From: Mobula hypostoma
Lineage: Eukaryota
Reading direction: 5' to 3'
Length of the DNA stretch: 64,000 nt
Assembly (NCBI RefSeq): GCF_963921235.1
Contig: NC_086097.1
Span: 41,666,001 to 41,730,000, forward strand
The position numbers and the translations under genes are program-made. This document shows, in pieces, positions 13,626 to 17,080 of the stretch; within the stretch, counting starts at the first letter, position 1; every line of letters starts with the position of its first letter. Below the pieces are notes generated by a model that worked only from the letters and a program-made list of their open reading frames with translations, did no database searches and had not been told where the DNA came from.

Positions 13626-16600
13626 ACCGAAGTGATCCCAAACCTTGGGATCACTTCGTTTGTCAAGAATTTCACCACTGTTCCTGCCCCTTGATCTTTC
13701 GAGGATACTGCCTCTACCTATCTGCTGAATCTGTCAATTACCACCAACATGTATCTTTTTCCTCTTACTGTTTTTATCATGTCTACATAGTCAATCACTG
13801 GGTGTTTGAATGGCCCTTCAGGTACGGGTATATGACCTATTGGGGTTGTAATTCCTTTCTGAACATTATTCTGCGCGCATGCCTCGCACTGTGACAATAC
13901 TTGGTCTACTGAAGCCTGTAAATAAGGCGACCAAAATCCATCCTATTTTATTTTCCTTATTACTTCCCCCCTTGCACAATGATCCATCTCATGTGCTTCT
14001 GAGATCAGGATAGTTAGTAAAGGGGTGGGAGCTACCAGTAGGCCATCTTCCGTGGTCCATAGGCCTTCTGGGTTCTGCTTGGCCCTGCTTCGTCTCCACA
14101 GTGTTTGTTCTGCCAAAGTTGCCTTTCCTTGTATTTCAATTAGGTCCTCTACCATAGGTTCCGGCTCTAGACTTACCTGGAGTGCAATAACAGTGGATGT
14201 GCACCCAGACGCTTTCCTGGCTGCTTCATCTGCAGCTTGATTTCCCTTTGTTACTGCATCGTTTCCTTTTTTATGTGTCTGGCATTTTACTATAGCCAGT
14301 GCTTTAGGTTTCATCAGTGCTTTTATTAGATCTAAAATCTGCTGACAGTGCTGTATGGGATCTCCATTGCTCTTTTTAAAACCTCTCTGTTTCCACACTG
14401 CCCCAAACAAATGACACACTCCATGAGCATATGCTGAATCTGTATAGATACCTACTTTCTCTCCTTCCATCATTTCACACGCTGCCATCAAAGCTCTGAT
14501 TTCCGCTAGCTGGGCGGAGCACGGCTGGGGACGTGCCTCTATTCTGATGACCTTGAAGTCTGCCTGATCCTGTTGCAGTACTGAGAACCCTGCGTGATTC
14601 CCATCGTGATCTCTGTAACAAGAGCCATCTACAAACAGGACCATTTTATCTTCGTCCTCTAATGGTTCTGATCGTAAATCTGCTCTCAATTTAGCGAATG
14701 TCATTGCTTTCCCTACACAATCATGGGGTTCTCCTTCATATCCTAAAGGGACATAATCAGCTATGTTACTGGTGGTGCATCTCTGTATAGTTATATCTGG
14801 AAATGTCAGTAGCATCTGATATGCTGCTATCCTGGCTGGTGTCAACACGAATTTCCCTCTATCCAATAATTCTGCTACCTTGTGGTGTGTGTACAGAATC
14901 ACAGGATAGTCCATGGTTACGACTGATGCCTTTTCATATGCATAGTATAGTGCCGCCAATCCCTGATAACAAGGTGGGTACCCCTGAGCCACCTCATCCA
15001 GTTTCGCACTGTAGTATGCTATTGGTTGCTTTGCTTTACCTGTGCCAGTCTCCTGCATTAGAACTGCCGTGGCATAACCTTCCTGTCGGTTGGATACGTA
15101 CAGATGAAAGGCCTTCTCGTAGTCAGGCAAAGCTAATGCTGGGGCTGACTGCAATTCCTGCTTTATAGTATTGAAAGCCACTTCCGCCTCCTCATTCCAC
15201 TGTAGACTACTCCTCAAGCTTGTATGTCCTGCTTCCTTCATTATTTTCCTTAGTGGCGTTACAATTTTAGCATATTCCCCAATCCAATCTGAACTATATC
15301 CTGTCAGTCCCAGAAACGTCATCATCTGTCTCACTGTCTGGGGCTTGGGAGCTTTAGTTATAGCCTCAATTTGGTCCGGCTCTATCGCCTTCACTCCCTT
15401 GGATATCACTCTACCTAGGTATTCTACCTGTTGCTTGCAAAATTGCAGCTTCTTTCTAGTTACCTTATGCCCTCCATGCGCCAGTCTCTCTAAAAGGGTT
15501 ATGGTATCCTGTTCACACTGTCCCTCACTTTCGGAGCAAATCAACAAATCATCCACATACTGTGCCAGTGTACTTTCCAACGATATGCCCTCTAGGTCCG
15601 CCTTTAACACTTGATTAAATACGTGTGGTGAATGTTTAAATCCTTGCGGCATTCTAGTGTAGGTATACGGGTTGTCTCTGTATGTAAATGCAAATAGGTA
15701 CTGACACTGATCTGCCGGGGAACGCTGAAAAAAGCCGAACACAAATCAATCACTGAAAAATAGTCTGCCTCTGGTGGAACATTAGTCAAGAGCGTGTGTG
15801 GGTTGGGAACTACCGCTGGCCAGTCCTCCACTACCTCATTCACCGCTCACAAGTCATGCACCAGTCTCCATTTAGATTTCTCCACTTTAAGGACAGGTAA
15901 CAGCAGGGTATTACATGGGCTGTCTGTCCTTAAGTACTCCTGCCTCCAGTAGCCCCTGTATCGTTGGCGCTATTCCCTCTTCTGCCTCTGGTTTCAAGGG
16001 ATATTGTGATCTCCTGGGTGGAACTGCTCCCTTTTTCAGCTTTATTTCTACCGGACTGGCTGTTCTTATTCTCCCTACATCCATGTCATGTTGTGCCCAC
16101 AGAATAGATGGTAACCTATCCAGCCTGTTACCTCTCTGTTGGCCTTCCTCCTTTCCCAATAACGTCAGGTGTGGTTAGGGAGTTACTTCAACCTCCTTTG
16201 TTGTTCCTACTATATCTATATCTATCTCTATTTTAAAATAGTTGTTATTTCCCTATACCCACACCTGTGGCATAAATTTACTCCACTCCGCTACGGTTCC
16301 AGCGTGCTTTACTAAGGGTCCTAGGTCTTTAGACTGATGTCCCTCATTTACCAGCAGCGTTATGTGGGGCTCAGCTTCTGGTATCCTGTACCATTTTTCC
16401 AAGAAGGTATTCCACCTGACTTGCAGGGCTGCCCCTTGTCTCCCAATTATTATAGCTTCTCCTCTTAGGTGCTGCCGTTTGCCTGCCTCCTTGTGCCATC
16501 TCTGCCCTAACTCTTTGTTCTGAGTTTTGTCAAAAATCACTGTGCAATGTAACTCGGATTTGGGCGCTACAGCCTGGGGCAATATAGCCTGCACGCCCTT

Positions 16601-17080
16601 TTTCCATTTTTCCCAGCTTTCCCAGATCTGATCTTCTATGTCTCCTATCCAAAAGACATTAGCTTTCTTGACTTCCCGCACTAGTAATTGAGCATTTACT
16701 CTTTCCACACTCAACCCACTTCTGGTACATTCTAATTTTAATTTTAATTCTAGTTTTAATAGGGCATCTCTGCCTAGCAAATTCATCGGAGTTCCTTTGG
16801 ATATTGGCAAAACTATTCTTTTGCTGCCCATCCTTAATCTCACTGGAGCTGTACATTGTGTCAACTGTGTTTTTCCCGAGAACCCTACAGTCTTAATAAA
16901 TTTTCCTGACATGGGAAGGTGAAGGGCATACTGCGGCTGTACGCAAGTATACGTGGCTCCAGTATCTATCATCACTGGTGTCAGCTGCCCTTCTAACACA
17001 ACCTGAACAATGGGTTCCTCTTCTGCCTCCCTTGTCATCACTGGGTAGTGCCCCTTCCCACCTGGGTTCTCTGGGCACCC
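13626..17080 (-). pseudogene. pol: ERV pro-pol (protease, 2H-like domain, RT, tether, RNase H, partial integrase); stops and frameshifts
   Basis: MIDTGAT and NLLGRD (protease); QYPL, IDLCSAFF, RMPQGF, QYVDDLLI (RT); FVDGS, AQLAE, YTDSAY, GNQAADEAA (RNase H); H-x3-H...CEAC, IDYVDM, VIDRFS, EVIPRFG (IN); sequence ends before the second catalytic Asp. Confidence 0.93.
16292..16669 (-). other. 2H phosphoesterase-like (CNPase/LigT fold) domain within ERV Pol
   Basis: Two hydrophobic-H-x-T-hydrophobic motifs: LHCTV (HCT at 16541-16549) and PHITL (HIT at 16358-16366), with the His residues 61 aa apart; in frame with the protease. Confidence 0.75.

Follow-up and report, generated by a model that had tools for sequence, protein, structure and literature searches.

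A CNPase-like 2H phosphoesterase domain in the Pol of a class I fish retrovirus lineage, traced from a provirus of Mobula hypostoma

The locus and the extent of the 2H domain

The stretch of DNA analysed here, called the window throughout, comprises 64,000 nucleotides of Mobula hypostoma (NCBI RefSeq assembly GCF_963921235.1, contig NC_086097.1, positions 41,666,001 to 41,730,000 of the forward strand). A class I endogenous retrovirus (ERV), broken and truncated at its 3' end, lies on its minus strand. The lineage to which this element belongs, an old class I lineage of fish retroviruses, carries a CNPase-type 2H phosphoesterase domain inside Pol, between protease and reverse transcriptase (RT). 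The features of the element are, in window coordinates:

20009..20480, minus strand: 5' long terminal repeat (LTR), with its inner end at 20009 and its outer end at or beyond 20480
19987..20004, minus strand: primer-binding-site-like stretch, starting with TGG just inside the LTR, as suggested by reading of the sequence
17339..18943, minus strand: gag remnants in two open stretches (18943-17744 and 17713-17339), from open reading frames (ORFs) and tblastn
17201..17242, minus strand: CCHC zinc knuckle (nucleocapsid), from sequence reading and tblastn
16739..17023, minus strand: retroviral aspartyl protease (Pfam RVP, E 5.4e-9)
16185..16669, minus strand: CNPase-like 2H phosphoesterase domain of ~160 aa, open to 16256, its end mapped from homologue P0008
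16541..16549, minus strand: first catalytic motif (H-C-T); as in CNPase, Pro stands at -5 and Phe at +5
16358..16366, minus strand: second catalytic motif (H-I-T), followed by Lys at +12 and Gly at +15
16301..16333, minus strand: helix after the second motif strand, predicted counterpart of CNPase alpha7 (DSSP H114-124; hhalign to a host CNPase exon)
16253..16255, minus strand: in-frame stop that shortens the 2H domain of this copy (ORF and translation)
14207..16174, minus strand: RT, tether and RNase H, spread over several frames (Pfam RVT_1, RT_RNaseH_2, RNase_H)
13622..14000, minus strand: start of the integrase, where the element is truncated (tblastn matches stop at 13622; sequence)

All motifs named in the initial annotation were located on the minus strand of the ORF 17041-16253: DTGAT at 16966-16952, NLLGRDALLKL at 16783-16751, LHCTV at 16552-16538, IIIGRQGAALQV at 16453-16418 and PHITL at 16369-16355. 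The two motif histidines lie 61 residues apart, and the glycine claimed 15 residues after the second one is present. Shuffling the 139 open residues produced a paired H-x-S/T-hydrophobic motif, spaced by 50-95 residues, in 19 of 20000 cases. The length of the insert, given as ~130 aa, had to be corrected to ~160 aa (~16669-16185). This mapping follows from the uninterrupted homologue P0008, which displays a high-confidence fold to about residue 167 and of which residues ~4-166 superpose on the whole catalytic domain of CNPase (162-378). The frame was also said to run on into RT, which is not the case in the window copy: the stop at 16255-16253 removes the last ~23 residues and, with the domain ending at 16185, takes away its last strand region. 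Neither the rest of the window nor two 3-kb provirus stretches, one of them on the env side, yielded a second 2H domain.

Fold, active site and conservation

Structure prediction for the 139 open residues yields a model with a predicted local distance difference test (pLDDT) score of 95.4 and a predicted template modelling (pTM) score of 0.87, in which each motif opens a strand (model strands 43-48 and 103-108), as in a two-lobed 2H fold. Among 48161 representative chains CNPase is the best match to the model, with Z 12.0 over 139/139 residues, followed by drCPDase (7.3), LigT-type proteins (6.3-6.7), Usb1 (6.5), mouse hepatitis virus (MHV) ns2 (6.3), Acb1 and the penguinpox cyclic GMP-AMP (cGAMP) phosphodiesterase (5.8 each) and rotavirus VP3 (5.0-5.3). 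The first 21 rows of this comparison are nearly all of 2H type, and unrelated folds reach Z <=2.9. A second structure comparison of the model gives Z 11.7-13.0 for CNPase, 10.1 for goldfish RICH, 9.7 for fungal Trl1 and 6.8 for MHV ns2, and the full-length homologue P0008 scores up to 15.8 with CNPase, 13.1 with Trl1 and 12.7 with RICH, other 2H entries remaining at or below 10.1. Superposition of the whole domain (root-mean-square deviation 2.7-3.5) would place the catalytic histidines of the predicted structure next to each other in space. The 2H fold and its likeness to CNPase, both suggested in the initial annotation, are borne out by the predicted structure and these comparisons. As to the check proposed there, structure prediction plus Foldseek, the Z-scored fold comparison matches CNPase; Foldseek on the PDB does not return an entry at E <=0.001.

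Regarding curated families, the domain reaches 21.1 bits against the 27-bit cut-off of Acb1 (PF23474), which is matched by 1 of 84 family members. PF05881 is likewise matched by 1 of 84 members (E 0.011), and the positions of CNPase Arg307 and Val321 differ. We consider the domain to be CNPase-like in its predicted chemistry, yet outside the vertebrate CNPase family proper (PF05881). The nearest clusters in the ESM Atlas are phage proteins of 136-141 aa with PF08302 (score 0.97). As for a possible descent from host CNP, the fold favours CNPase, the Atlas favours phage CPD-like/2H-SAK proteins, and the hhalign match to a host CNPase exon is weak.

Helix alpha7 is described in PMC5283653 as unique to CNPases among 2H enzymes, where it coordinates the nucleophilic water and blocks the side of the site that is used by enzymes cleaving 2',5'-oligoadenylate (2-5A); PMC4643303 likewise treats it as a CNPase feature. 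Taken as a mark of the CNPase branch (vertebrate CNPase, RICH, the cyclic phosphodiesterase (CPD) of Trl1), such a helix is present in both models: it spans residues 114-124 (DSSP) directly after the second motif strand of the window model, and H118-127 in P0008. Residues were counted by their offset from the first (H1) and second (H2) histidine among 151 homologues, using only the rows that cover each column and leaving out P0056. The catalytic histidines (111/122 and 127/136) and the Thr/Ser of the two motifs (118/124 and 127/137) are the best-kept positions. Proline stands at H1-5 in 96 of 123 homologues and glycine at H2+15 in 120 of 130. An aromatic residue (Tyr/Phe) occupies H1+5 in 120 of 137, the position of CNPase Phe235, which stacks the base according to PMC4643303. 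The CNPase exons of the host display the same LHCT..F and HITL...G pattern. These exons occur twice, ~180 kb apart (G000:C91:33776800-33961841), with equal scores and in different order, a duplication or an assembly artefact.

HMMER search with the domain recovers 162 clusters at E <=0.001. In an alignment of the best 150 of these plus two further matches, both motifs are kept in 89 of the 104 homologues that cover both, a count that still includes P0056, rejected as a Sushi-repeat false positive. Long homologues display the order protease, 2H, RT in Pfam scans. In the sample of carriers with a name, 21 genera are ray-finned, 4 are cartilaginous and tetrapods are absent, and all 12 directly named ray-finned proteins keep both motifs. 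Versions from Narcine and Chiloscyllium (P0185, P0187, P0190, P0197) share 28-31% identity with the window domain, which suggests that cartilaginous fishes hold more than one lineage bearing it. Three homologues (P0059, P0060, P0090) contain protease, 2H, RNase H and integrase parts with no RT match; they may be RT-deleted non-autonomous elements that retain the 2H domain, or gene-model artefacts. In P0047 the 2H match (433-523) follows an RT match (202-365), and a second RT stretch is present as well, as in a rearranged or tandem copy.

The genome of Mobula hypostoma itself contains at least 120 matches to the domain (150 scored of 206 candidates). Among 50 genomic copies, namely the best 30 plus 20 at 78-83% identity, 45 have the two motifs intact. 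The ratio of nonsynonymous to synonymous divergence (dN/dS), computed as pairwise Nei-Gojobori net divergence between two subfamilies, with CpG decay possibly inflating dS, amounts to 0.128 for the 2H domain (bootstrap 0.061-0.239; 50 copies), 0.067 for the protease (35/50 copies) and 0.083 for RT (31/50 copies); within subfamilies, dN/dS is 0.42-0.79. Judged by the between-subfamily values, selection on the 2H domain in the replicating virus was about as strong as that on the core enzymes. The two checks of this kind named in the initial annotation, conservation of the H-x-T motifs among family copies and dN/dS, have a favourable outcome: the motifs are conserved in homologues and genomic copies, and dN/dS indicates purifying selection.

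State and affinities of the provirus

The solved RTs closest to that of the window element are p80 RT/RNase H entries (E 5e-96), Pr125Pol-type entries following only at 1e-25, and the element is assigned to class I (gamma/epsilon-like) on this basis. The features of that class are seen: an RT closest to murine leukaemia virus type, an RVP protease, tether plus RNase H, and a TLV_coat env. The latter is a family trait: neither env nor a 3' LTR of the provirus was found within the window, and a TLV_coat match lies 1.5-11 kb downstream of at least 27 of the best 70 domain copies, from which we conclude that the family had env. The gag remnants match teleost ERV polyproteins (tblastn E 2.7e-13 and 2.5e-10), and P0088, whose zf-CCHC occupies residues 622-638, gives a tblastn match that starts at 17242. 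The nearest named proteins come from rays (Mobula, 91% over a short stretch; Hypanus, 72-75%). Trees, which are unrooted, set the element among ERVs of ray-finned fishes. The RT tree contains ERV homologues only; of the 50 that match RT, 17 are missing from it because they cover less than 200 aa.

The LTR is 96% identical to both LTRs of another provirus, and the match to a 3' LTR begins at 20009. Its other copies display 95-97% identity, self match excepted, in the 40 scored of 532 genome-wide candidates, and four LTR pairs of the family diverge by 1.7-3.9%. No tRNA genes were found within the window. In the proviral leader, reading of the sequence reveals a nearly exact tandem duplication of ~61 bp (19478-19599).

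The window copy is a dead remnant that is unable to express an intact 2H domain, because of the stops at 16255-16253 and 16177-16175 and the frame changes in RT. Elsewhere in the window, a second LTR-element pol, related only distantly, at 52344-54755 (plus strand) contains RT, RNase H and integrase at 22-26% identity and is probably Gypsy-like. A short RT fragment lies at 24947-25366 (plus strand). An ORF at 23073-23435 (minus strand), GIY-YIG-like in its pattern and with LINE-like fragments nearby, is probably a Penelope-type remnant.

Possible functions and relation to known systems

This data may suggest a mechanism, which would be a property of the replicating ancestors, the window copy being dead. 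The reading that we favour, as slightly more likely than not, is that the domain acted as a Pol-borne 2',3'-cyclic-phosphate 3'-phosphodiesterase, packaged with RT and acting on RNA ends or cyclic nucleotides. CNPase chemistry as such appears fairly probable to us, the biological substrate being less sure, and the domain, which is conserved, was probably catalytic while the virus replicated. Being a portion of Gag-Pol, it would enter the virion together with RT, as its position in Pol suggests, and release by the protease may follow. The pair of His-x-Thr motifs, together with the N-terminal end of the alpha7-like helix, would then open a 2',3'-cyclic phosphate to a 2'-phosphate and a free 3'-OH, the reaction of CNPase and fungal Trl1 CPD. 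The likeliest substrates would be the cyclic-phosphate ends that cutting by metal-independent RNases of the host leaves on viral RNA or on packaged tRNA primers, 2',3'-cyclic nucleotides being an alternative. A phosphate-rich RNA substrate would go well with the Lys/Arg conserved at the beta5-alpha7 loop. The virus may profit from end healing, which provides a usable 3'-OH, or from the withdrawal of cyclic ends from ligation and sensing by the host. Among the options of the initial annotation, repair of cyclic-phosphate RNA ends is the one that finds support.

Several points weigh against this reading. CNPase Arg307 is not retained, being mostly Val/Ala in the family, and the position of CNPase Val321 (H2+12) is Lys/Arg in 108 of 133 homologues; hence, substrate specificity may differ from that of CNPase. 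Foldseek alone reaches at best E 0.014 on the PDB, with CNPase filling the list, and searching the PDB by sequence, whether with the domain itself or with its profile, returns nothing significant. The hhalign match to a host CNPase exon has a probability of 27 and E 7e-4 over 58 columns, and the sole Pfam match of the window copy is to Acb1 (E 2.7e-4), below cut-off. Primer healing presupposes an RT that extends a primer with 2'-phosphate and 3'-OH, and Env-borne versions, as in walleye viruses, would not sit with RT in the core. To our knowledge, most retroviruses manage without such an enzyme.

A function in cleaving 2-5A, countering OAS/RNase L as coronavirus NS2 or rotavirus VP3 do, had been proposed as well, and we regard it as very unlikely. 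OAS1_C genes are present in the host (11 matches; three loci form a cluster), and cartilaginous fishes are reported to retain OAS-RNase L (PMC10400998). However, the same source places the loss of this pathway in the ancestor of ray-finned fishes, and these account for 21 of the 25 named carrier genera, with both motifs kept in each of the 12 named proteins. Together with the alpha7-like helix, whose CNPase counterpart is reported to block the 2-5A side (PMC5283653), this makes 2-5A cleavage unlikely as a shared role. The combination that characterises NS2, VP3-CTD and AKAP7, an open side without alpha7 and a host with OAS-RNase L, was not found, and NS2 (Z 6.3) and VP3 (5.0-5.3) are distant in fold. 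In the host genome the three clustered OAS1_C loci come with a broken one, and PF06479 has only two matches (G000:C78:31043513-31173778 and C59:16066590-16069988); the PF06479 matches may be IRE1 rather than RNase L. The argument from OAS loss leaves cGAS-STING untouched, and ray-finned fishes possess this pathway. An enzyme delivered with the core, which destroys 2'3'-cGAMP raised by reverse-transcribed DNA as Acb1 and avipox phosphodiesterases do, agrees with the Acb1 match of the window copy, with the basic residue at H2+12 that departs from CNPase, and with the repeated targeting of messengers by viral 2H enzymes described in PMC11410667. Yet Acb1 and the penguinpox enzyme reach Z 5.8 against 12.0 for CNPase, the match to Acb1 is confined to one family member in 84, and PMC5283653 reports that one side of the site is closed off by alpha7, so that we hold this alternative to be improbable.

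We assign a similarly low probability to a mainly non-catalytic role, either as an RNA-binding helper of RT or packaging, or as a decoy against host CNP, an interferon-stimulated Gag-binder that blocks HIV-1 assembly. The loss of Arg307 fits such a role, and the position next to RT recalls the betaretroviral G-patch. CNP binds the matrix protein and inhibits particle formation, as stated in PMC7471995; against this role, the catalytic His and Thr/Ser are the positions kept best. Resolution of a small cyclic phosphate, such as ADP-ribose 1'',2''-cyclic phosphate, in the manner of plant CPDase seems less probable still. 2H enzymes do perform such reactions (PMC9503650, section 21), and plant CPDase is a weak match in sequence and fold, but Z is 5.6-6.6 only and Pfam scans of 29 homologues reveal no KptA or Macro partner domain. 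Finally, chance motifs in a neutral linker would agree with the failure of every curated family to pass its cut-off; fold, conservation and dN/dS refute this explanation, to which we give practically no credence.

The architecture is already known in outline, and the statement in the initial annotation that similar domains had been noted in fish retroviruses proved correct (section 21 of PMC9503650). New here are the cartilaginous-fish lineage, the true extent of the domain, its assignment to the CNPase branch with alpha7, a measure of its purifying selection, the reasoning based on the loss of OAS, and the distinction between versions borne in Pol and in Env. The literature searched, in which most subscription papers are missing, yielded no study of retroviral 2H domains that addresses their biochemistry or function. 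A fifth enzyme in retroviral Pol, kept by purifying selection in sharks, rays and no fewer than 21 ray-finned genera, points to a step of the retroviral cycle, or to a host defence, that awaits description. The analysis weighs against the fashionable 2-5A reading and narrows the question to cyclic-phosphate versus cGAMP, 2-5A and ADP-ribose 1'',2''-cyclic phosphate substrates. More speculatively, and with considerable doubt, a CNPase-type domain may have been captured by fish retroviruses, one lineage placing it in Pol and the walleye viruses in the cytoplasmic loop of Env, and then retuned (Val321 to Lys/Arg, Arg307 lost) for a task in the retroviral cycle that has gone unrecognised. That task would be to heal the ends of primer tRNA or of the genome, or else to destroy cGAMP; in the latter case, retroviruses would possess an enzyme directed against nucleotide-messenger immunity. 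This scenario, if true, would also provide a natural, selected role for CNPase chemistry, the physiological substrate of CNPase being called unknown in PMC3290555.

Among known systems, the 2H domains of fish retroviruses noted earlier (Mazumder et al.; PMC9503650, section 21) share the placement in a piscine retroviral polyprotein, whereas the window family is that of a cartilaginous-fish ERV with at least 120 genomic matches. The best viral models in BFVD are Q2VF30 (E 3e-7, TMq 0.83) and the Env proteins of walleye epidermal hyperplasia virus 1 (3e-6) and walleye dermal sarcoma virus (WDSV; 4e-5). The entry Q2VF30 is itself unnamed, and we take it to be Pol of salmon swim bladder sarcoma virus. 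The Env polyproteins of these walleye epsilonretroviruses are the BFVD entries Q9WHI8 and A4GTG3 (TMq 0.70 and 0.74). In the walleye viruses the fold match thus lies in Env and in the window family in Pol, which suggests that fish retroviruses carry the domain in either. The Env match would be sited in the 170-aa cytoplasmic loop between residues 874 and 1045 of WDSV Env (PMC3185748), the size of which fits.

Vertebrate CNPase and fish RICH (PDB 2xmi, 1woj, 2i3e; PF05881) share with the retroviral domain the fold of the whole domain (Z 12-15.8), the two HxT motifs, Pro at -5, the aromatic residue at +5, and the helix and Gly after the second motif. They differ in sequence (~15% identity), in length (~215 versus 160 aa) and in the spacing of the histidines (79 versus 61-63), and the retroviral domain is without Arg307, has Lys/Arg in place of Val321, lacks a kinase-like N-terminal domain and remains below the Pfam cut-off. 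The CPD of fungal Trl1 (PDB 6u05; PF08302) is the second-best fold (Z 9.7 and 13.1), but below CNPase, and the retroviral domain has no ligase or kinase partner. With MHV NS2, rotavirus VP3-CTD, Acb1 and the avipox cGAMP phosphodiesterase it has in common the superfamily, the catalytic dyad and the carriage by a virus, whereas these messenger-cleaving enzymes align over 90-112 residues at Z 5.0-6.8 and belong to a LigT-like branch reported to be without alpha7.

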